Source of the DNA: Micromonosporaceae bacterium
GTDB taxonomy: Bacteria > Actinomycetota > Actinomycetes > Mycobacteriales > Micromonosporaceae
Direction of reading: 5' to 3'
Assembly (NCBI GenBank): GCA_016880465.1
Contig: JAEHDK010000738.1
Coordinates: forward strand, 1-48,929
Length of the DNA stretch: 48,929 nt
In this document: piece after piece, positions 2,082-48,911 of the stretch
Layout of the letters: each line of letters begins with the position of its first letter
Numbering within the stretch: the first letter of the stretch is position 1
Program-made: the position numbers and the translations under genes
The notes under the pieces: generated by a model
The model's database searches: none
What the model saw: the letters and a program-made list of their open reading frames with translations, nothing else
Told to the model about the DNA's origin: nothing

Positions 2082-5000
2082 GTGACCCTCGAGCTGGTGC
2101 CGTTCCGCGGCCACACGGTGCCAGTCCTCAACGGCGTCAACGGCGAGATCGCCCGGTACAGCCTGCAGCAGTACCTGCAGGACACCACGTTCCGGTTCGG
2201 CGGGATCACCTACCAGCCCAACCAGTACGGGGTCACCACCACGTGGGGGCAGCGTCCGGCCGAGAAGGTCGGCAACAACTTCGCCGGCTACGCCGAGGGG
2301 CTGTTGTACCGGGATGGCCCACTGGCCGCGGCGGAGGCGTACCGGCTGCGGGTCTTCGGCCAGGCGCCGATGCTGTTCCAGGAACGCTCGGACGGCCGGG
2401 CCGGGGATCTGCTCGACGACGACTCCCTCGAGCCGCTGCGCACCCCATGGGTGGGCGGGTCTACCGGCGACCTGATGAAGCGGGCCCTGCTCTACGGGGA
2501 CCTGGGCGGCAACGGCTGGGTCGTGCACATCGACGACGAACTGGTGGTGCTGCGCCCCGACTACGTGACGATCGTGCTGGCCGACCGGATGTACGAGGGC
2601 CGCAAGGTCGGGTTCAAGCAGGTCGGGATCGCCTACTCCGAGTACGGGCTGCAGGACGACTCGGCGGCGGTGTTCATGCGCGGCGAGTACTGCCACTTCG
2701 TGCCGTTCATGCCCGACCCGCTGGCCTCCTACCGGGGCATGTCGTGGATGACGCCGATCATCCGGGACATCCAGTCCGACATCGGGGCCACCGACCACGG
2801 CCTGGCCTGGTGGTCCAATGCCGCGACACCGAACCTCGCGGTGAGCCTGCCGAAGGAGATCACTCCGGAGCAGTTCAAGAAGTTCGTCGCCGAGATGGAC
2901 GCCAACCACCGCGGCGCGATGAACGCCTACCGCACCCTGTACACGGCCGGTGGGGCCGACGTGACCGTGGTCGGCGCGAACATGCAGCAGATCGACTACT
3001 CCCGGGTGGTCGGGAAGAACGAGACCCGCATCGCCAACCTGTCGGGTATTCACCCGGCTTTGCTTGGTTTCTCCGAGGGCATGCAGGGGTCGTCGCTGAA
3101 CGCGGGCAACTACTCGGCGGCCAAGCGCAACGTGGTCGACACGACGATGCGGGACCTGTGGGCCAACTGGTGTGCGTCGATGCAGGTCCTGTTCCCGCCG
3201 CCGGACCCGACGTGGCGGCTCTGGTACGACGGGCGGGACATTCCGTTCCTGCTCGACGACGCGAAGGATCTCGCGGAGCGGCAGCAGACGCAGGCGGCGA
3301 CGATCGCGTCGCTGATTCAGGCCGGGTTCGAGGCCGCGTCCGCGGTGTCCGCGGTGTCCGCCGACGACCTGAAGCATCTCAAGCACACCGGCCTGGTGTC
3401 GGTGCAGTTGCTGCCCCCGGGTGAGCAGCCCGGCCAGACGGACCAGACGGACACCGCCGCGTACGAGCAGGCGTTGCAGACCGCCCGCGCGCAGGTGTGG
3501 GGCGACGACGACATCGAGCGCGGCTACTACGGGGCCCTGCCCGGTGAGCGGGTCGGGAAGGGCAAGGTCGGCGGCGGCCGGTTCAAGAAGCTGTCCGACC
3601 GGGCGTTGGACGCGATCCGGGAGTTCTTCGCCGCGGACGCTGACGGGGATCCGTTGGAGGGTTGGACGCAGCCGCAGCTGAAGACGGCGGCCACCCAGTT
3701 GGGCATCGACGTGCCGCCGCGCATGTCCGGGCCGAAGTTGAAGCTGGCCATCTTGGAGCACGCGCGTGGCAAGCCGGACGGCACCCCGAAGCCTGCCGGG
3801 AAGGCCACCCCACGCGCACCGGCGAAGAAGGCGGCGCCGAAGCCTGCGCGGCGCGTGGAGACGATGGCGACCGCACTGCATGAGGATTGGCGCCAGACGT
3901 TCCACAAGACCTTCCGTGCCGACCCGGACAACGCCGGCAAGAAACCGACTCGTCTGAAGACCACCAAGGACAAGGGTTGGATCGCATCACACGGCACTGA
4001 TCAGGTGGACATCGCCAACACTGACTACGCGGACCTGCCTGAGGACTGGCAGCGCGAGAACCGCGCCGCAGCTGAGGTCATCGAGGGAATCCTCGCTCGG
4101 CGCGGTCGGGTCGACCTGGACGACCCGGCGACCCGCGAGGCCCTGGGTGAGGAGATCCACGCCGCTTGGCTGTCGCGCAACGAGTGGGCCCGCGGCGGCG
4201 ACCTCGACAAGCCGTTTGCCGAGTTGCCGAAGGTCGAGCAGGACAAGGACATCGACCAGCTTCGGGTGGCGATGGGAGCGATGAAACCGGCTCCGGCCAA
4301 GAAGGCTCCGGCCGAGCCCGGTCTGCCGCCGGGTTACGACTTGCGGATCTCTCCAGCCCTGCATGCCCCCGGGCGGTACAACGTTAAGGCCTTCTACCCC
4401 ACTGGCCGCGAGGTCCACATCACCCAGAACTTGACGCAGGCCGGGGCGCGACGCGAGTTGGATCGGTTGACCGCCGGTGGGCCGGAGTTGGTCGACGCTA
4501 CGCATGCGAAGAACTCCCACGCGGTTAGGGAGCGCAACCAAAGGTTGATGGAGGCGGAGGCACTCAAGGAACAAAGGAAGGTCAGGCGACAGCAGCTTCA
4601 GGGGCGCTCGCCCTCTTGGTTGCGCGAGCAGCTGGCCGATCGAGGCCTTGATACGTCCGGCACCACGGCGCAAATGATCAACCGCCTGATGGACGCTGAG
4701 GGTCTTGGACAGGCGGACACCAAGACGCCGTCTCGACCCGACCTCGAGGCCGCCGGGAAGGCCACCCCACGCGCACCGGCGAAGAAGGCGGCGCCGAAGG
4801 CTGCGCGCGAGTCGGTGCTCGGCGGCCCGATGGACGAGAACGAGGAGTTGCTGCACGGGCTCACTCTGGCCGAGATCGTCCAGGTGGCAGAGGAACTGAA
4901 CGTCCAGGCGCCCGTCGCCAACACGGGCCGTGGTTTTGGCATGGGCCGTAGGTGGCCATCGAGTAAGGCGGGCCGCATCAGGTATGTCCTTCAGTCGCTC

Positions 5001-30471: not shown

Positions 30472-30523
30472 TGGGCGACGATTGACCTGAGTTGGTTCCG
30501 GTCCCATCTGGCCGGGCAGACGA

Positions 30524-30562
30524 AAGCGGCCCCGGTCCTCCTCGCGGAGGCCGGGGCCGCTT
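30524..30562. terminator. Hairpin between convergent arms
   Basis: AAGCGGCCCCGG(T)CCTCC-TCGC-GGAGGCCGGGGCCGCTT. Confidence 0.6.
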
Positions 30563-30585
30563 CGTTGGTGTCTGGACATAGAAAA

Positions 30586-30618
30586 GCGCCCCACCCGCCG
30601 GCTAGACGGGTGGGGCGC
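30586..30618. terminator. Second hairpin between convergent arms
   Basis: GCGCCCCACCCG-CCGGCTAGA-CGGGTGGGGCGC, a 12-bp perfect stem. Confidence 0.6.
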
Positions 30619-30637
30619 CTTCGACCGTACCGAGCAG

Positions 30638-31225
30638 CTAGCCGGACTGCTGGGACCGACTAGCGTTCATCCTCTTCAGCGCGGACTCCCTACGGAGCGC
30701 ACGCTGCTCGTCGATAGGCGGCAGCCATACCGGCGTGGCCGGCGCGACAGCCTGCTCCACGGCTGCGATCAGTGGGGCGGCACTGGCTTCCGCCTTGACC
30801 ATCCGCTCTGCGCTGTCCTCGAGTTGCCGGATCTTCGCACCGAGCTCGACCAGCGCGATCGCCGCGATGGTCATCAGCCCGTCCACCGACGCCGGCCAGA
30901 TGTACTGGCTTCCGCCCGACTCCCCGTAGTGGCTGACCGTGGCGGCCATGTGCCAGTAGGACAGCCAGGCGGCAGCGAACGCGACGCCGATGGTGGCCAC
31001 GACCCGGCCGAAGGCGCCGAGCCGTCTGGTGGTCGGTACTCGGGTGAGCACCTCGAGAGAAAGCAGCAGGGCGACTGGCGGCCACCCTACGATCGCGGCC
31101 GAGATCAGGCCGCTCGAGCCGAGCACGTTGGCGGCGATGGACGCCGCGATGCCGACGACGACGATGATGCGCACTACGGCGCGACGCTTGCGCAGATCCT
31201 TGATCTGCGCTGGCGTGTTCTTCAT
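30638..31225 (-). CDS. DUF2637-like multi-pass membrane protein
   Basis: Four hydrophobic segments. WPPVALLLSLEVL and PASVDGLMTIAAIAL match the DUF2637 pattern common in actinobacterial mobile elements. Confidence 0.7.
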   Translation of the reverse strand: MKNTPAQIKDLRKRRAVVRIIVVVGIAASIAANVLGSSGLISAAIVGWPPVALLLSLEVLTRVPTTRRLGAFGRVVATIGVAFAAAWLSYWHMAATVSHYGESGGSQYIWPASVDGLMTIAAIALVELGAKIRQLEDSAERMVKAEASAAPLIAAVEQAVAPATPVWLPPIDEQRALRRESALKRMNASRSQQSG

Positions 31226-31303
31226 GGGCCCTCCTCGAGTCCAGGGACGCCGCGCTCTACGACGCCCCCCGCGGGCGTCGGTGCTGCGGGTGATGAGGAG
31301 GGT

Positions 31304-31335
31304 GCCGGGAGCCCCGATGATGACGGGCTCCCGGC
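31304..31335 (-). terminator. 11-bp perfect hairpin after the small ORF
   Basis: GCCGGGAGCCC-N10-GGGCTCCCGGC. Lies 12 nt downstream of the 31347 stop on the minus strand. Confidence 0.5.
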
Positions 31336-31346
31336 GGTCTGGCTGG

Positions 31347-31493
31347 TCAGCGGCTGGCGAGGATCTCGTCCCGGCGGGCTAGCACCACGGTGGCCTCGAA
31401 GGGCTCGCCGGATGCCTGCCACTCGTGGACTGCCTGCGCCCACGCGGCCTGTTCGGCGTTGTCGTAGCGGCTGACCGTCTGCTGCTGGTTCAT
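31347..31493 (-). CDS. Small hypothetical protein (48 aa; MNQQQTVSRYDNAEQAAWAQAVHEWQASGEPFEATVVLARRDEILASR)
   Basis: Not in the track (<60 aa). ATG is preceded by GAGGGAGCAAGGCA. High third-position GC. Confidence 0.45.
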   Translation of the reverse strand: MNQQQTVSRYDNAEQAAWAQAVHEWQASGEPFEATVVLARRDEILASR

Positions 31494-31512
31494 TGCCTTG
31501 CTCCCTCGACCG

Positions 31513-31529
31513 GCCTGCGGGTTGCAGGC
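31513..31529 (-). terminator. Short hairpin immediately 3' of the tRNA-like fragment
   Basis: GCCTGC-GGGTT-GCAGGC. Confidence 0.35.
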
Positions 31530-31534
31530 GGGAG

Positions 31535-31560
31535 TGCCCCCGGCCGGACTCGAACCGGCC
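31535..31560 (-). other. tRNA 3'-end fragment (T-arm + acceptor 3' strand); candidate attP core
   Basis: The minus strand reads GGCCGG-TTCGAGT-CCGGCC-GGGGGC-A, a perfect T stem-loop plus acceptor strand and discriminator. No matching 5' acceptor, D-arm or anticodon arm lies upstream, so it is not a complete tRNA. Confidence 0.55.
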
Positions 31561-31798
31561 TCATCGGCGTTACGCCTCGGTGATCGTTCAGGCTCCCGAC
31601 GGTGCGGGCCTGCGGGGCATGTGGCCCCCGAGCGCTGCGGTCGCGTGTGCGGTGTCGCGCTGCACGGGGGCGGGGTGGTTCCCGGCTGTGTGCGCCGGAT
31701 GCTGTGTTGAGTCGGGCTGGTTCACGGCGTTGAGGCGACTGCTTGCGCTGACCTGACCCTCGCTGCGGTGTCCCAACTCTCCAGTTGTTCTACGTCTA

Positions 31799-31816
31799 CG
31801 ATACCACGGGGTATCG
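31799..31816. promoter_or_regulatory. Palindromic site CGATAC-N6-GTATCG (copy 1)
   Basis: CGATACCACGGGGTATCG. Confidence 0.5.
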
Positions 31817-31843
31817 CCATACACAACACTACCGCGACCGAGA

Positions 31844-31861
31844 CAATACCCGGAAGTATCG
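31844..31861. promoter_or_regulatory. Palindromic site CAATAC-N6-GTATCG (copy 2)
   Basis: CAATACCCGGAAGTATCG, one mismatch to copies 1 and 3. Confidence 0.5.
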
Positions 31862-31865
31862 AAGT

Positions 31866-31881
31866 CTGGCCGATCGGCCAG
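31866..31881. promoter_or_regulatory. Perfect 16-bp palindrome CTGGCCGATCGGCCAG (operator or terminator hairpin)
   Basis: Lies 4 nt after site copy 2 and 7 nt beyond the stop of the minus-strand gene 31888-32130. Contains GATC. Confidence 0.5.
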
Positions 31882-31887
31882 TTGACG

Positions 31888-32130
31888 CTAGCCCTTTCGG
31901 CTGACCCGCCGCTTGGGCGGCAGCCCTTCCTGGCGCCGGTTGTGCTGCTGGATCGCCTTGCGCACCGCGGCCTCAGTCAGACCCAGCGCCCCGGCGACGT
32001 CCTGCGCCCGCACGCCACGGGTCAGCTCCCACACCTCCGCGTCGGCGAGTGCACTGGCGGCGGCGGACAGCCGGGACAACTCCGAGGCGAGCCGGCGGGC
32101 GGTCAGGGCGCGGGTCACGTCCATGGTCAC
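31888..32130 (-). CDS. Small helix-turn-helix DNA-binding protein (sigma-70 region-4-like HTH)
   Basis: AQDVAGALGLTEAAVRKAIQQH is an HTH-like segment. 80 aa. Confidence 0.6.
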   Translation of the reverse strand: MTMDVTRALTARRLASELSRLSAAASALADAEVWELTRGVRAQDVAGALGLTEAAVRKAIQQHNRRQEGLPPKRRVSRKG

Positions 32131-32402
32131 GGCCGGGTGACCTTCGCCAAGACGTCAGCCGGGATCGGGTGGTCCGTACTGGCGTGCCAGCGCTCGTGAG
32201 CCCACGTCAGATCACCGTATGTGTCTGCGTCGTCGGCGCATACGACGGCGAAGCAGCGTGGACAGTGGGCGATGGCCCACCACGGGTTGCCCTTCCTCCC
32301 GGCTTCATCGGCGGTGAGTACTGCCGAGTGCTTCCAGCCGGCCATGTGCACACGGCCCTGTTCGGCACCGGACAAGACGACGAACCAGTCACCAGAAGCC
32401 AT
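32127..32402 (-). CDS. Hypothetical protein (91 aa, His/Trp/Cys-containing)
   Basis: 4-nt overlap with the downstream HTH gene. High third-position GC. Confidence 0.55.
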   Translation of the reverse strand: MASGDWFVVLSGAEQGRVHMAGWKHSAVLTADEAGRKGNPWWAIAHCPRCFAVVCADDADTYGDLTWAHERWHASTDHPIPADVLAKVTRP

Positions 32403-32410
32403 GGCGTTAA

Positions 32411-32428
32411 CGATACACCCCGGTATCG
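32411..32428. promoter_or_regulatory. Palindromic site CGATAC-N6-GTATCG (copy 3)
   Basis: CGATACACCCCGGTATCG. Lies 9 nt upstream of the minus-strand start at 32402. Confidence 0.5.
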
Positions 32429-32430
32429 AA

Positions 32431-32712
32431 ATGGCCGATCATCCGATCGGCATGTCCCGCCGCGCCTGTCACCCTGCGACTGTGACCAATCCGCCGATCG
32501 TGCCCGGCCGCCCCGACGAGCCGTCCCCGCAGCAGTGGCCGGCCCAACCCCCGCCGGTGCAGTACGTGCCAGCCCCGCAGAGCGACGTGGTTGGCAGGTC
32601 CGTCGTGGGCACCATCACCGTCGTGGTCACCCTGGTGCTGATCTTCTGCATCCTGCCGATGTTCCTATGCGTCGGCTGCGGGACCATCGGCCAGATCATG
32701 AACAACCGCTGA
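32431..32712 (+). CDS. Pro-rich protein with C-terminal transmembrane anchor
   Basis: ATG 32431 (alternative in-frame ATG 32401). C-terminal VVGTITVVVTLVLIFCILPMFLCVGCG is hydrophobic. Confidence 0.5.
   Translation: MADHPIGMSRRACHPATVTNPPIVPGRPDEPSPQQWPAQPPPVQYVPAPQSDVVGRSVVGTITVVVTLVLIFCILPMFLCVGCGTIGQIMNNR
32434..32451. promoter_or_regulatory. Inverted repeat GCCGATC-ATCC-GATCGGC
   Basis: Shares the GCCGATC half-site with the palindrome at 31866-31881 and has the same spacing after the GTATCGAA site. Confidence 0.45.
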
Positions 32713-32814
32713 CGCGCCCGGGGATGATCGGCGGGGGTACCCGGGCCGGCTGCTGGAGTCGCAGCCGCTCGGCGACGGTCCAGATGATGCACCACAGGTC
32801 CAGCACGGTGATCC

Positions 32815-32919
32815 TCACGGCCAGTCCTCCCCGTCGTGCCAGCCGAAGCGGTCCATAACGCGGGCGATGTGCACCGCGGCGGCCAAGAGAACTGCGCCGA
32901 GGAAGCCGAGGACGATCAT
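32815..32919 (-). CDS. Small membrane peptide (34 aa; MIVLGFLGAVLLAAAVHIARVMDRFGWHDGEDWP)
   Basis: A strong RBS AGGAGGAGAC precedes ATG 32919. The 5' extension of track ORF 32815-33075 is rejected. Confidence 0.5.
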   Translation of the reverse strand: MIVLGFLGAVLLAAAVHIARVMDRFGWHDGEDWP

Positions 32920-33065
32920 GTCTCCTCCTGAGCCCCGGCCGGCAAGGGCGACCGGGGCTGCCAGGGTGGTGCCTGGGCCGGGCGCGGTTTTGAGGTAAGC
33001 CGACCGCGCCCGGCGTGGGGGATCATCCCGACTTGCCGAGTAGGGGCGATCCTGGTTGGTCAGGA

Positions 33066-33084
33066 TAGCGCACATAGTGCGCTA
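33066..33084. promoter_or_regulatory. Palindrome TAGCGCAC-ATA-GTGCGCTA (operator O1 upstream of GntR gene)
   Basis: Perfect 8+3+8 inverted repeat. Confidence 0.55.
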
Positions 33085-33094
33085 GCATCTAGGG

Positions 33095-33105
33095 GCACAT
33101 GGTGC
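33095..33105. promoter_or_regulatory. Core palindrome GCAC-ATG-GTGC (O2) abutting a TTGAAG -35-like hexamer
   Basis: Shares the GCACAT(A/G)GTGC core with O1. Centres are 25 bp apart. Confidence 0.4.
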
Positions 33106-33160
33106 TTGAAGCTGACAGGGGTAGGTGATCGAATTGGCGGGCCGAGTAGGGAGCACCGCC

Positions 33161-33388
33161 ATGCCGATCACGCCGCTGTACCAGCGCATCGCCGCCGACA
33201 TCCGCGCCCAGATCGAGTCGGGTGAGCTGCGTCCCGGCGACCGGCTGCCGTCGGCCACCGAGTTGCAGGCGAAGTACGGCTCCGGGTCGACCGCGGTGCG
33301 CAACGCCATGCTCGTCCTCCGGGCCGAGGGGCTCGTCGAAGGTCACCAGGGACGGGGGGTCTACGTTGCTCGACGATCTGAAGAGTGA
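33161..33388 (+). CDS. GntR-family winged-HTH protein, DNA-binding domain only (75 aa)
   Basis: PLYQRIAADIRAQIESGELRPGDRLPSATELQAKYGSGSTAVRNAMLVLRAEGLVEGHQGRGVYV is a textbook GntR N-terminal domain. ATG 33161 follows GGGAG. Confidence 0.85.
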   Translation: MPITPLYQRIAADIRAQIESGELRPGDRLPSATELQAKYGSGSTAVRNAMLVLRAEGLVEGHQGRGVYVARRSEE

Positions 33389-33772: not shown

Positions 33773-34654
33773 CCCCGTGTCTGGCACCGGCAGCGCGAGC
33801 ACGGCAGCGCGGCGTTGATGGCCGGTCACCTGCGTGTATCCCTGGGTGCTGGTGACGTTCTTGTGCCGCAGGCACTCCTGGGTGACCCGCAGGTCCCCCA
33901 CGGTGGCCTGGATCAGCGTCCCGTACCGATGCCGGAGCCGGTGCAGGTGCACTGTATGCAACCCCAGCCGGTCGAGGTGGTACCTGGCCGTCTGGGTGAT
34001 CCAGTGCCCGTCGACCGGTTGTCCCCTGCGGTTGGTCACGAGCGGGCCGGGTGACCGGTTCACCACCAGCGCCCAGACGATCGGGTGGGTCGGTACGACA
34101 CCCGGTTGGTCACCCTTGCCCGAGGGGATCAGGATCGTCTCAGCCGTGATGTGCTCGCGCATGCAGGCCGCGATCTCCGATACCCGCATGCCCGCGTACC
34201 CGGCGAGGGTGGCCGCGGTGCGCAGCGGTTCCGGTAGGGCGTCGAGCATGGCCGCCAGCTCCTCCTCGGTGACCGGTTTCGGTAGGCACCTCGGGGCCTT
34301 CGGCTGGGGGATGGAGGCGGTGGGGTCTCCGTCGAGAAACCCGGCGGAGGTGGCCCACTGGTAGAAGGCCCGGATGTGGTAGGCGTACACGGACAGTGTC
34401 CAGCGGGACCGACCCAAGGTGCGGAGGTCGGACAGCCACGCCTCGATCTGCTCGGTGGCGGCGAACGCGAGGCCGAAGGGCAGCCATCCGTTGAGCCGGC
34501 CGAGCACGTTGACGCGTGCCTCGATGGTGCGTCTGCTCTTGCCTCCCGCCCGTAGGTGCCGGGCGTGGAGGTCCAACAACTGATCACTCATCCGCAGATC
34601 TTCGTGACGTCGGGTCACTACGGGCAACCCCTCTCCAGTCTGTGATGGCTCCAC
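33755..34654 (-). CDS. int: Tyrosine integrase (XerC/D-like, 299 aa)
   Basis: GMRVSEIAA (Arg I), HLHRLRHRYGT (HxxR) and LRHKNVTSTQGYTQV (His..Tyr). The start overlaps the repressor stop by 1 nt. Alternative start is ATG 34591. Confidence 0.9.
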   Translation of the reverse strand: MEPSQTGEGLPVVTRRHEDLRMSDQLLDLHARHLRAGGKSRRTIEARVNVLGRLNGWLPFGLAFAATEQIEAWLSDLRTLGRSRWTLSVYAYHIRAFYQWATSAGFLDGDPTASIPQPKAPRCLPKPVTEEELAAMLDALPEPLRTAATLAGYAGMRVSEIAACMREHITAETILIPSGKGDQPGVVPTHPIVWALVVNRSPGPLVTNRRGQPVDGHWITQTARYHLDRLGLHTVHLHRLRHRYGTLIQATVGDLRVTQECLRHKNVTSTQGYTQVTGHQRRAAVLALPVPDTGARAGL

Positions 34655-35091
34655 TACACGGCGACAGGTGTGTGTGGACGTACGAACGCGCCGACAACCG
34701 GACGGGTCTCACGCACCGATCGGGTCCTGGTGGGATGAGGTGCCGGTGGGCCGTTCGTGTGATGGCTCAGGTAGTCGCCGATTGTGCCGAGGACGCGTGT
34801 CCCGACATAAGCACTCCTACGTATCGAACCACCTCTTTCCGGCCCGTGGACCAGCCACAGATAGTCGCAGCCGGTGCGGCTCGCGATGGCCATCGCGATC
34901 GTTGTGAGCCGGTGCGGCTCGCGGCCCTGGATCTCCCAGCCTCGCCACGACTGCGCAGGTACGCCGCAAGCTGCTGCGGCTTCCTTGATGTTCCAGCCCA
35001 TGCGGTGGCGCACGAGGGCCAGCCGTGCGCTGAAGGACAACTCCGGCACCCAGGCTTCTGTCTCCTGGTGCGTGGTGTCGGTGATGGTCAT
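34654..35091 (-). CDS. XRE/Cro-CI-type HTH immunity repressor candidate
   Basis: LSFSARLALVRHRMGWNIKEAAAACGVPAQSWRGWEIQGREP is an HTH_3-like segment. ATG 35091 lies 6 nt after a TACTAT -10 element. The upstream part of the track ORF (to 35190) is rejected. Confidence 0.75.
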   Translation of the reverse strand: MTITDTTHQETEAWVPELSFSARLALVRHRMGWNIKEAAAACGVPAQSWRGWEIQGREPHRLTTIAMAIASRTGCDYLWLVHGPERGGSIRRSAYVGTRVLGTIGDYLSHHTNGPPAPHPTRTRSVRETRPVVGAFVRPHTPVAV

Positions 35092-35097
35092 ATGGAC

Positions 35098-35125
35098 ATA
35101 GTAGGTGTCTGCGCGCGTTAAGCAA
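35098..35125 (-). promoter_or_regulatory. Leftward promoter candidate (TTGCTT-N16-TACTAT), leaderless repressor mRNA
   Basis: On the minus strand the -10 TACTAT ends 6 nt before the repressor ATG. Confidence 0.45.
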
Positions 35126-35147: not shown

Positions 35148-35177
35148 TTGACACCACAGGGCGTGACGTTTTACGGT
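35148..35177 (+). promoter_or_regulatory. Rightward early promoter candidate (TTGACA-N18-TACGGT), leaderless
   Basis: Consensus -35 and a TANNNT-type -10 that ends 7 nt before ATG 35185. Confidence 0.45.
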
Positions 35178-35184
35178 GGCGTCC

Positions 35185-35382
35185 ATGCAACCTGAGGTAG
35201 TGCTACTCACTACTGCCGAGCTTGCCGAGCAGTTCCGCGTTCACCCCTCGACCATCCGTCGATGGATTGAGGACGGCCGCATCTCGGCGATCACCCTGCC
35301 GGGCGGACTCAAGCGCTACCGCAAGTCCGAGGTCGAGGCGATCCTCGCCGGTGAGCACCGGTCCCCGGCCGGTGCGGCGTGA
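35185..35382 (+). CDS. Excisionase/MerR-type HTH (HTH_17) protein; Cro- or Xis-like first early gene
   Basis: LLTTAELAEQFRVHPSTIRRWIEDGRISAITLPGGLKRYRKSEVEAIL. Alternative start is GTG 35176. Confidence 0.75.
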   Translation: MQPEVVLLTTAELAEQFRVHPSTIRRWIEDGRISAITLPGGLKRYRKSEVEAILAGEHRSPAGAA

Positions 35383-41583: not shown

Positions 41584-41935
41584 CCCGATCGCCCGCCGGA
41601 CCCGGCTGAAGTCCCGGGTCAAGCCCGCGGTCCCGCGAGACGTCCTGAAGGCCCTCGCCGCCCGCTCTGGCGGTCTGTGTGAGGCTGCGCTGCCCGGGTG
41701 CCTGGGTAGGGCCACAGACCCGTGCCACCGCGTAGGACGCGCGCAGGGTGGCGGAGACGCACTCAGCGGACTGTGGCATGGCTGCCGCCGCTGTCACGAG
41801 TGGTGCCATGCCCAGCCGGCGGAGGCATATGACCTTGGCCTGATGCTCCGGTCGTGGCAGGTGCCCGAGTTGGAGCCGATGGCCTACCGGTCTGCGGGCT
41901 GGGTGCTGCTCGGCGAGAAGGTGACCTGGCTGTGA
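41567..41935 (+). CDS. HNH-like Cys/His-rich nuclease-family protein
   Basis: RSGGLCEAALPGCLGRATDPCHRVGRAQGG....CRRCHEWCHAQP resembles divergent phage HNH proteins. Confidence 0.5.
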   Translation: MALTRSPIARRTRLKSRVKPAVPRDVLKALAARSGGLCEAALPGCLGRATDPCHRVGRAQGGGDALSGLWHGCRRCHEWCHAQPAEAYDLGLMLRSWQVPELEPMAYRSAGWVLLGEKVTWL

Positions 41936-48439: not shown

Positions 48440-48624
48440 CCCGGGTGCCCGTAACCTGCCGCCTCTGCGGTGACCAGACCCCGGCGTGGCCGGCCATGCT
48501 CGAACACCTGCGGCTGCTGCACCCCGACGTTGATCGGGAGGTGGAATGGCCCGACTCAAGCCGTGTCTTGACTGCGGGCTGCTCTCCCCAGGGCCTCGGT
48601 GCGTGGGGTGTACGCGGGCAGTAG
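48436..48624 (+). CDS. Small hypothetical protein; the 3' part overlaps the HNH gene
   Basis: ATGA overlap upstream. CRLCGD...HLRLLHP. The last ~26 codons overlap 48546-48911 and look non-native. Confidence 0.35.
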   Translation: MTRVPVTCRLCGDQTPAWPAMLEHLRLLHPDVDREVEWPDSSRVLTAGCSPQGLGAWGVRGQ

Positions 48625-48911
48625 ACCGGGCCAACCTTCGGGGTAAGCGGGCACGGAGGGTATACACCACCGAAGAGAGGCAGCGCAGGGCCCAGGTGGT
48701 AGGCGCGTGGATAGCCACCAATGGACTCATGTGTCCTGGCTACCAGGTGGCAGCTCACCCGAGTGGAGATCTGACGGCCGACCACCCAGTCGAAGTGGCT
48801 CTTGGTGGAAGCGAGAGCCAGGAACTGGCTGTCCTGTGTCGCCCACCTGGTTGCCCTGCTGGGAGAGGCGGGTGGCGAGATGGCCGCCGACAAACCCGGT
48901 CCCGCCGGTGA
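48546..48911 (+). CDS. cos/terminase-associated HNH endonuclease
   Basis: MARLKPCLDCG....RC..C at the N-terminus, then CPGYQVAAHPSGDLTADHPVEVALGGSE..LAVLC. RBS GGGAGG. Last gene before the genome end, adjacent to terS across the ends. Confidence 0.8.
   Translation: MARLKPCLDCGLLSPGPRCVGCTRAVDRANLRGKRARRVYTTEERQRRAQVVGAWIATNGLMCPGYQVAAHPSGDLTADHPVEVALGGSESQELAVLCRPPGCPAGRGGWRDGRRQTRSRR

Follow-up and report, generated by a model that had tools for sequence, protein, structure and literature searches.

Why should a small gene of a phage be bracketed by several copies of one palindrome? The question arises in contig JAEHDK010000738.1 from a Micromonosporaceae bacterium, a contig of 48,929 bp with a G+C content of 67.5% that was analysed over its whole length (referred to as the window) and belongs to a fragmented 5.5-Mb assembly. 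The palindrome CGATAC-N6-GTATCG is present three times, at 31799-31816 (copy 1, CGATACCACGGGGTATCG), at 31844-31861 (copy 2, CAATACCCGGAAGTATCG, with one mismatch) and at 32411-32428 (copy 3, CGATACACCCCGGTATCG), as described in an earlier note on this DNA, all of whose sequences and coordinates were verified. Between copies 2 and 3 the minus strand carries the gene for HTH80, a small helix-turn-helix (HTH) protein (31888-32130; 80 amino acids, or 78 if translation begins at the likely true start, ATG 32124), preceded by a gene for a protein of 91 amino acids (32127-32402). The palindromes are probably operators for a dimer of HTH80, which would autoregulate its own operon and control a second, leftward promoter.

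Taken alone, the window is unremarkable: three sites with up to two mismatches were found against 1.45 expected from shuffled sequences. A count over the entire assembly, which the earlier note had proposed, found the perfect 12-base pattern only twice in 5.5 Mb, both times at this locus, and three of the eight sites with at most one mismatch sit inside the same 630 bp. The looser 10-base core GATAC-N6-GTATC, again with at most one mismatch, occurred at 29 sites in the assembly, corresponding to about 0.003 sites expected per 630 bp. Three sites in 630 bp exceed this expectation by several orders of magnitude.

Conservation in related phages, likewise suggested beforehand as a check, was found. 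Twelve distinct related loci were identified via the HTH80 protein and one more, L025, via the DNA motif alone, giving 13 contigs, all from uncultured phages. In the twelve protein-derived loci 26 core sites lay in the 12.4 kb around the HTH gene, compared with a single one in the other 45.9 kb. Because of this conservation across related loci the observation is far from chance. The HTH80 gene, whose homologues encode 78-80 amino acids, sits between palindromes in every locus, and the placement is the same in all 13 contigs: the HTH operon has one site directly ahead of its first start codon, and two or three follow the HTH gene. The predicted upstream operator (copy 3) is designated O_up, the proximal downstream one (copy 2, predicted to be auxiliary) O_D1 and the distal downstream one (copy 1) O_D2. 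The flank of O_D2, GTATCGTAGAC..., is homologous to the O_D2 flanks in L006, L013 and L015. O_D1 and O_D2 are usually about 185 bp apart in the relatives and only 45 bp apart in the window, which is devoid of an approximately 140-bp block showing high conservation between the downstream operators elsewhere. This block was located at 4391-4557 in L006, with equivalents in L008, L011, L012, L013, L021 and L022, and contains repeated TGTCCG/ATGGACAT motifs, CCCCTATAAGTAGAGGG and GTGCGCAGGCCAG. One of its 10-mers, ATGGACATAG, is also present in the window at 35091-35101, in the switch region between the XRE and HTH_17 genes.

Across the 36 sites of the 13 phage contigs A5, C6, G13, T14 and A15 were invariant (36/36) and T16 was nearly so. 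The arms are symmetric, and the central 4-6 bp are variable yet rich in G and C. Where symmetry is broken, it is broken on one side, and compensatory changes are almost lacking. Most relatives have a degenerate left arm in O_up (CGCTAC, CGCCAC or CGTGAC) and an intact right arm, while copy 3 of the window is a perfect palindrome. Since the arm bases are invariant, the centre variable and the changes not compensatory, this pattern, judged from the alignment, is the signature of sequence-specific recognition and not of a pairing structure.

A further regularity lies immediately outside the dyad. On the HTH80 strand the base following the palindrome was T at all 11 O_up sites and all 12 O_D2 sites, but at only one of nine O_D1 sites, namely copy 2 of the window (TATTGT). 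Together with the right arm this T gives TATCGT, TATCAT or TATAGT, that is the actinobacterial -10 pattern TANNNT. At O_up the predicted -10 hexamer of a promoter designated P_up (TATCGT, 32410-32415, minus strand) consists of the right half-site plus one T and ends 7 nt upstream of ATG 32402, the window reading TATCGT-TAACGCC-ATG. In 11 loci the distance from the O_up hexamer to the ATG or GTG of the first gene was 6-8 nt, mostly 7. A gap of this length leaves no space for a Shine-Dalgarno sequence and so implies a leaderless mRNA, making P_up a predicted leaderless promoter. Leaderless transcripts are common in Actinobacteria. At O_D2 a second promoter, P_down, is predicted from the -10 hexamer TATCGT (31798-31803, minus strand; TANNNT at 12 of 12 O_D2 sites) and the -35-like hexamer TTGTGT (31821-31826, minus strand) 17 nt upstream of it. 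Hexamers of the TTGnnn type were seen about 17 nt upstream of the O_D2 hexamer in six of 11 loci when the flanks were read by eye. The sequence TTGACAACTCCA, which follows O_D2 in some relatives, was considered as a further -35 element and dropped, its distance being variable and no -10 element following it.

The same sites could act at the level of RNA, as terminators, stabilisers of RNA 3' ends or processing sites of the HTH80 transcript. Copies 1 and 2 and a palindromic 16-mer at 31866-31881 directly follow the HTH80 stop codon, and a 121-nt RNA of the HTH80 3' region forms stable hairpins (-46.7 kcal/mol, z = -2.3), although good folding is to be expected of any palindrome. The hairpins have no U-tract; actinobacterial terminators often have none either. 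A terminator scan of 31300-32800 gave no terminator-like site. It is the arm sequence itself that is conserved, with compensatory changes almost nil, and the O_up left arms of most relatives would not pair. Copy 3, moreover, is placed upstream of the operon's start codon and hence outside the predicted transcript, and a hairpin role leaves both the conserved extra T and the fixed distance to the start codon unexplained. We therefore regard a hairpin function as improbable.

As operators, the three palindromes would work as follows. Dimers of HTH80 would bind all three sites within the neighbourhood of the lysogeny module of a temperate actinobacterial siphophage. At copy 3, which overlaps the -10 hexamer of P_up, binding would repress the synthesis of HTH80 itself: the leaderless transcript would start at, or within one or two bases of, the ATG of the first gene and would contain first the 91-amino-acid gene and then the HTH80 gene. 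Copy 3 occupies most of the 28-bp gap between ATG 32402 on the minus strand and ATG 32431 on the plus strand, and a bound dimer would probably also affect the divergent membrane-protein gene whose ATG is 3 nt from the site. Copy 1 overlaps the spacer and the -10 hexamer of P_down (TTGTGT-17 nt-TATCGT), so that HTH80 bound there would control transcription reading leftward across a probable attachment-site (attP) core into an operon encoding a 48-amino-acid protein and a DUF2637 membrane protein. Copy 2, 45 bp upstream, would have an auxiliary function and strengthen repression by cooperative binding or looping. The suggestion of the earlier note that these are paired operators is thus supported in substance, to the extent that sequence comparison can do so, by conserved, apparently sequence-specific and promoter-associated sites that flank a conserved small HTH gene.

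What kind of protein is HTH80? Its family comprises 20 proteins at 90% clustering, all of them metagenomic and none with a Pfam domain, and a profile search of 1.84 billion representatives yielded 14 below E = 1e-10. No homologue was found in 185,579 species genomes, nor in cultured phages or plasmids by translated searches; with no HTH80 in the species genomes, they provided no prophage copy by which attL and attR could be defined. The AlphaFold model (pLDDT, the predicted local distance difference test score, 89.7) consists of a long helix (residues 6-36) and a C-terminal HTH (residues 42-68). Its recognition helix VRKAIQQHNRR (AAVRKAIQQHNRR) is near-invariant, which parallels the invariant operator arms. 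Among the named Pfam HTH families HTH_23, Sigma70_r4_2 and MerR/HTH_17 the best score was obtained with HTH_23 (16.2 bits, cut-off 24.6), and remote HTH80 relatives also stayed below the Pfam threshold. A sequence profile search of the PDB returned only spurious matches to designed repeats, and Foldseek found no significant match in the PDB or BFVD. Activation with a MerR-like geometry was considered and rejected, because neither the fold nor the 17-nt spacer fits it.

HTH80 is the only DNA-binding protein co-conserved with the motif, and as in an autoregulatory HTH repressor-operator module the HTH gene adjoins recurrent, dyad-symmetric and conserved sites. The reverse search pointed in the same direction. 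The exact palindrome was present in 11 viral contigs. Ten of these contained single sites in unrelated contigs with a G+C content of 49-62%, approximately the number expected by chance according to our own estimate. The only match of high G+C content was L025 (68%), in which HTH80 is encoded beside the site and the full architecture is present. Conversely, the palindromes were absent from three phage loci of high G+C content (L005, L035 and L036) that possess the 91-amino-acid gene but not HTH80. Finally, L010 and L016 are the only loci with substitutions in the recognition helix (at the QQ positions) and the only ones with downstream operators of the TGATAC type, a covariation of 2/2 against 0/11 (Fisher's p about 0.013, phylogeny ignored). 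In combination these observations point to HTH80 as the binder, though not conclusively.

The sites might be true operators and yet be recognised by another protein, HTH80 being merely a regulated gene. The candidates would be the winged-helix protein of the GntR type (87 amino acids; 33125-33388, plus strand), the XRE immunity repressor (34654-35091, minus strand), the HTH_17/Xis-like protein (35176-35382, plus strand) or a host regulator. In favour of a GntR-type binder, sites of this family are typically short dyads, and GntR-like genes are present in five related loci. They share, however, only 38-67% identity with the window protein, and none was found in the 3-4 kb examined upstream of HTH80 in L006 and L012. 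A separate palindrome, TAGCGCAC-ATA-GTGCGCTA at 33066-33084, precedes the GntR-type gene and is probably the own operator of this effector-less protein. For the XRE and HTH_17 proteins of the window no homologue could be detected in the related loci, including L006, L010 and L015, in which the integrase neighbourhood is covered, and yet the motif is unchanged there. In the 48.9-kb contig no CGATAC site lies near the GntR, XRE or HTH_17 genes or any other regulator gene, and a host factor would be at odds with the near-absence of the motif from the host assembly. The whole module is syntenic, so that co-occurrence cannot fully separate the candidates. All in all we consider a binder other than HTH80 unlikely. 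HTH80 itself is probably not the immunity repressor, because 2 kb away the XRE and int genes form a separate operon that has a switch region of its own.

The earlier note had further combined copies 2 and 3 with adjacent inverted repeats built on GGCCGATC into one duplicated module. The pairing is real at both copies, but the two repeats have to be explained differently. The repeat beside copy 3 (GCCGATC-ATCC-GATCGGC, 32434-32451) encodes M-A-D-H-P-I-G at the start of the divergent gene for a Pro-rich membrane protein (32431-32712, plus strand). In L010 the homologous open reading frame (G+C content at third codon positions, GC3, 0.88) starts with VSDHPIG encoded by identical DNA, and the one in L006 starts with MADHP. 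The window, L006, L010, L021 and L025 all retain the N-terminus M-(A/S)-D-H-P and, with it, the rare codons GAT and CAT. Retention of these codons may reflect an additional constraint on the DNA itself, which might for instance belong to the divergent promoter region.

The repeat beside copy 2 is the perfect 16-bp palindrome CTGGCCGATCGGCCAG (31866-31881), which forms a hairpin without a U-tract when folded as RNA. A hand alignment of GCCGATCGGCCAGACTT with GCCGTTCGGTCAGAGT of the relatives showed identity at 13 of 16 positions. The latter belongs to a companion element of the type GTCAGCC-TTTC-GGTCAG that precedes O_D1 by 4-8 nt in each of the ten relatives for which data exist and also lies 5' of O_up in L009, L015 and L016; upstream of palindromes it was seen in L009, L011, L012, L015, L016, L021 and L022. 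A second copy resembling this element in the window, GGTCAGCCGAAAGGGCTAG (31888-31906, minus strand), overlaps the last codons and the stop codon of HTH80 and is similar to GGTCAGCCGAACGGTCAG in L022 and GTCAGCCTTTCGGTCAG in L021, which lie 4-8 nt 5' of O_D1 there. On these alignments the repeat by copy 3 is coding sequence of the membrane-protein gene and the repeat by copy 2 resembles the conserved companion element. GGCCGATC itself occurs nine times on both strands of the window, and a search of viral contigs for the composite pattern of palindrome plus GGCCGATC found none.

Both repeats contain GATC, and the phage gene at 41932-42612 matches the Pfam family Dam (PF05869; E = 7e-25), which had led to the proposal of methylation-sensitive control. 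GATC is present 375 times in the window (7.7 per kb; observed/expected 1.04) and is not enriched locally. The palindrome itself contains no GATC, the companion element of the relatives reads GCCGTTCGG or GCCTTTCGG and mostly has none, and the repeat at copy 3 is explained by its coding function. With GATC at its expected density and not conserved in the site, Dam-sensitive regulation is the least probable of the explanations considered.

Several points weigh against the proposed role of HTH80 and the palindromes. A scan of 31300-32800 for an E. coli-type sigma-70 consensus detected no promoter, P_up has no recognisable -35 element, and both promoters are assigned entirely from TANNNT and geometry. 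Dimerisation of HTH80 is an assumption based on the dyad symmetry of the sites. The weak fold matches of HTH80 (E > 0.1, template modelling score about 0.45) include sigma region 4, NarL, Fis, Mor and KorA, and because some of these neighbours are activators HTH80 might activate and not repress. The covariation between helix and operator involves two loci that are phylogenetically not independent, and O_up of both L010 and L016 keeps C at position 1. The test of association is partly circular, since HTH80 itself led to most of the loci, and the reverse test amounts to one contig. Finally, the companion element could be the site of a second factor.

The palindromes had also been viewed as bracketing a two-gene cassette. 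The 91-amino-acid protein is the first in the operon and contains a putative zinc-binding motif, CPxC...HExWH, whose residues are invariant in the alignment. Its family consists of only five protein clusters; the predicted fold is rich in beta structure (pLDDT 83) and had no structural match in the PDB. In L005, L035 and L036 homologues occur in other gene contexts, the early-gene arrays of other phages of high G+C content. Among the relatives with HTH80 the slot upstream of it is empty in L006, L008, L009, L012, L015 and L016, holds unrelated genes for about 70-127 amino acids in L010, L011, L014 and L025, and contains a gene for 93 amino acids in the contig of P0002. HTH80 and the palindromes are therefore kept when the slot is empty or differently occupied, and the 91-amino-acid gene exists elsewhere without either, so the notion of a two-gene cassette was not borne out. 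Judged from these gene contexts, the 91-amino-acid gene is variable cargo between a predicted leaderless promoter and the regulator and not a conserved partner. A type II toxin-antitoxin pair was rejected on the same grounds, HTH80 being found without an upstream gene or with unrelated ones and the 91-amino-acid gene without HTH80.

Could the palindromes instead be related to recombination, either as arm-type or accessory sites of attP or as the boundaries or scars of a mobile cassette? Copies 1 and 2 are about 240-330 bp from a good candidate for the attP core, a tRNA 3'-end fragment with a perfect T arm and the 3' strand of the acceptor but no 5' half (31535-31560, minus strand), and phages differ in the gene that they carry between copy 3 and HTH80. 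The fragment, probably the attP core, is placed between P_down and the operon for the 48-amino-acid and DUF2637 proteins, 2.2 kb from int; the window contains no full tRNA. The fragment recurs in L025, where a single acceptor base differs, and L010 and L022 carry analogous ones in the same position. In L008 and L016, by contrast, the fragment adjoins int. It is found there on the other side of the HTH gene, at a distance of 2.3-3.5 kb from this gene and of more than 2 kb from any palindrome, and both loci nevertheless retain the full set of palindromes. The palindromes are thus independent of attP, because they are present with either placement, and do not travel with attP and int across relatives as arm-type sites should. 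The distance between copy 3 and the attP core is about 850 bp. In the 299-amino-acid integrase only a SAM-like (weak) and a catalytic domain were detected by Pfam, although non-detection of an arm-binding domain is no proof of its absence. The copies are dyad-symmetric and differ in their central 6 bp, hence they cannot recombine with each other, and as palindromes flank HTH80 even where any cargo gene is missing they do not mark the boundaries of an inserted cassette. A function in recombination is therefore very improbable.

Immediately 5' of the tRNA-like fragment lies a block, GCCTGAACGATCACCGAGGCGTAA (GCCTGAACGAnCACCGAGGCGTAA; 31570-31593, minus strand), that is common to the window, L006 (about 4678-4701) and L008 (about 4705-4728). 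An Rfam scan of 30500-33200 revealed nothing relevant and no match for this block. When 300 genomes of the same order were searched, the tRNA-like 26-mer was found in the window only. The best tRNA matches in the host assembly were generic T-arm matches of 18-23 nt, headed by a tRNA-Arg (21/23), and attB was found neither in this assembly nor in the 300 genomes. Since no matching tRNA is present in either, the host assignment of the binned contig is uncertain.

The position of the probable attP core suggests a further, rather doubtful consequence. The presumed target of the predicted P_down is the operon at 30638-31493, composed of the 48-amino-acid open reading frame (31347-31493, minus strand) and the gene for the DUF2637 membrane protein (PF10935; 30638-31225, minus strand). 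The tRNA fragment is followed after only about 40 nt by the ATG of the 48-amino-acid reading frame, and this interval accommodates a hairpin and a Shine-Dalgarno sequence. Because the probable attP core lies between P_down and the operon and no space is left for another promoter, integration would uncouple the two. The operon would be cut from phage control and placed behind a reconstituted host tRNA gene, and P_down at the end of the prophage would point into host DNA, checked by two HTH80 operators. The layout with the probable attP between promoter and operon is also found in L025, L010 and L022. If the proposal is true, integration would here rewire phage gene expression in a second manner, unlike the type known from phage BPs, in which attP is inside the repressor gene.

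The general layout of the window is that of a temperate siphophage, as deduced from a GC3-based gene map and family scans. Terminase and structural genes occupy 248-30350 on the plus strand, followed by the lysogeny-module region at 30.6-35.4 kb and, to the right of it, by early genes on the plus strand that include the Dam-family methylase at 41932. From left to right the lysogeny region consists of the DUF2637 gene, the 48-amino-acid reading frame and the tRNA 3' fragment (all on the minus strand), palindrome copies 1 and 2, the HTH80 and 91-amino-acid genes (minus), palindrome copy 3, the membrane-protein gene (plus), the GntR-type winged-helix and HNH genes (plus), the integrase and XRE repressor genes (minus) and the HTH_17 gene (plus). 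Terminase genes are at the start of the contig (1-2071) and an HNH-like gene is at its end (48546-48911), an arrangement resembling that of cos-type phages whose packaging needs an HNH partner. For this reason the contig looks like a complete or near-complete linear phage genome and not like an integrated prophage. A host Rossmann enzyme at the right end was rejected, being an alternative open frame over the plus-strand phage HNH-like gene. Nucleotide searches of a cultured-phage collection in near and distant modes gave no match.

For a lineage of soil actinobacterial phages that only metagenomes have revealed, the locus offers a concrete regulator-operator pair open to testing. It supplies a consensus site of 18 bp, a pair of predicted promoters, of which one is leaderless, and a protein family without name or structure. 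The slot between the predicted leaderless promoter and the conserved regulator takes different cargo, while the spacing between -10 hexamer and start codon is retained. A compact, orthogonal repressor-operator pair of this kind, derived from phages of high G+C content, could serve as a genetic part in Streptomyces or Mycobacterium. Provided that attP has been placed correctly, the locus would in addition be a new case of integration switching the promoter of a prophage operon. Literature searches for DUF2637 in connection with phages and for leaderless operators in actinobacteriophages returned nothing relevant.

How does the module compare with known systems? CI and Cro of phage lambda are dimeric HTH proteins that bind dyad-symmetric operators of 17-18 bp over core promoters, regulate their own synthesis and use cooperating or looping sites. 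Dyad operators over promoter elements, autoregulation and multiple sites are likewise predicted here. The differences are the fold of HTH80 with its long N-terminal helix and C-terminal HTH, the predicted leaderless promoter, the missing tripartite operator and the lack of any sign of a role in a lysis-lysogeny switch. KorA of IncP plasmids, Mor of phage Mu and Fis, the weak structural neighbours, are similar in consisting of about 80-100 amino acids with helices and one HTH and in binding dyads at promoters; KorA operators overlap -10 regions. However, these fold matches are non-significant, the domain order is unlike that of KorA, Mor and Fis are mainly activators or architectural proteins, and Pfam and PDB profile searches detected no sequence relationship to any of the three. 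The stoperators of gp71 of phage L5 are also actinophage repressor sites found at promoters and inside or after transcription units, but they are asymmetric 13-mers, about 30 of them genome-wide, that act in an orientation-dependent manner, whereas the three sites described here are symmetric and confined to one locus.

By analogy, the nearest described actinophage case is gp33 of BPs, an immunity repressor encoded next to int with attP inside its own gene, whose 12-bp palindrome is present at six genomic loci; for this repressor the possibility that sites some 100 bp apart loop has been discussed (Villanueva et al. 2015, PMC4557955). Both systems involve a small HTH protein of an actinobacteriophage and short palindromic operators at several promoters, in both a well-conserved half-site often has a degenerate partner, and in both attP is close to the regulatory region. 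Here, in contrast, a separate XRE repressor-int operon is located 2 kb away, known repressors show no detectable resemblance to HTH80, the three sites are all local, and attP, if placed correctly, lies between the regulated promoter and its operon and not within a repressor gene. Set beside these systems the module is an ordinary kind of phage control circuit made of new parts.

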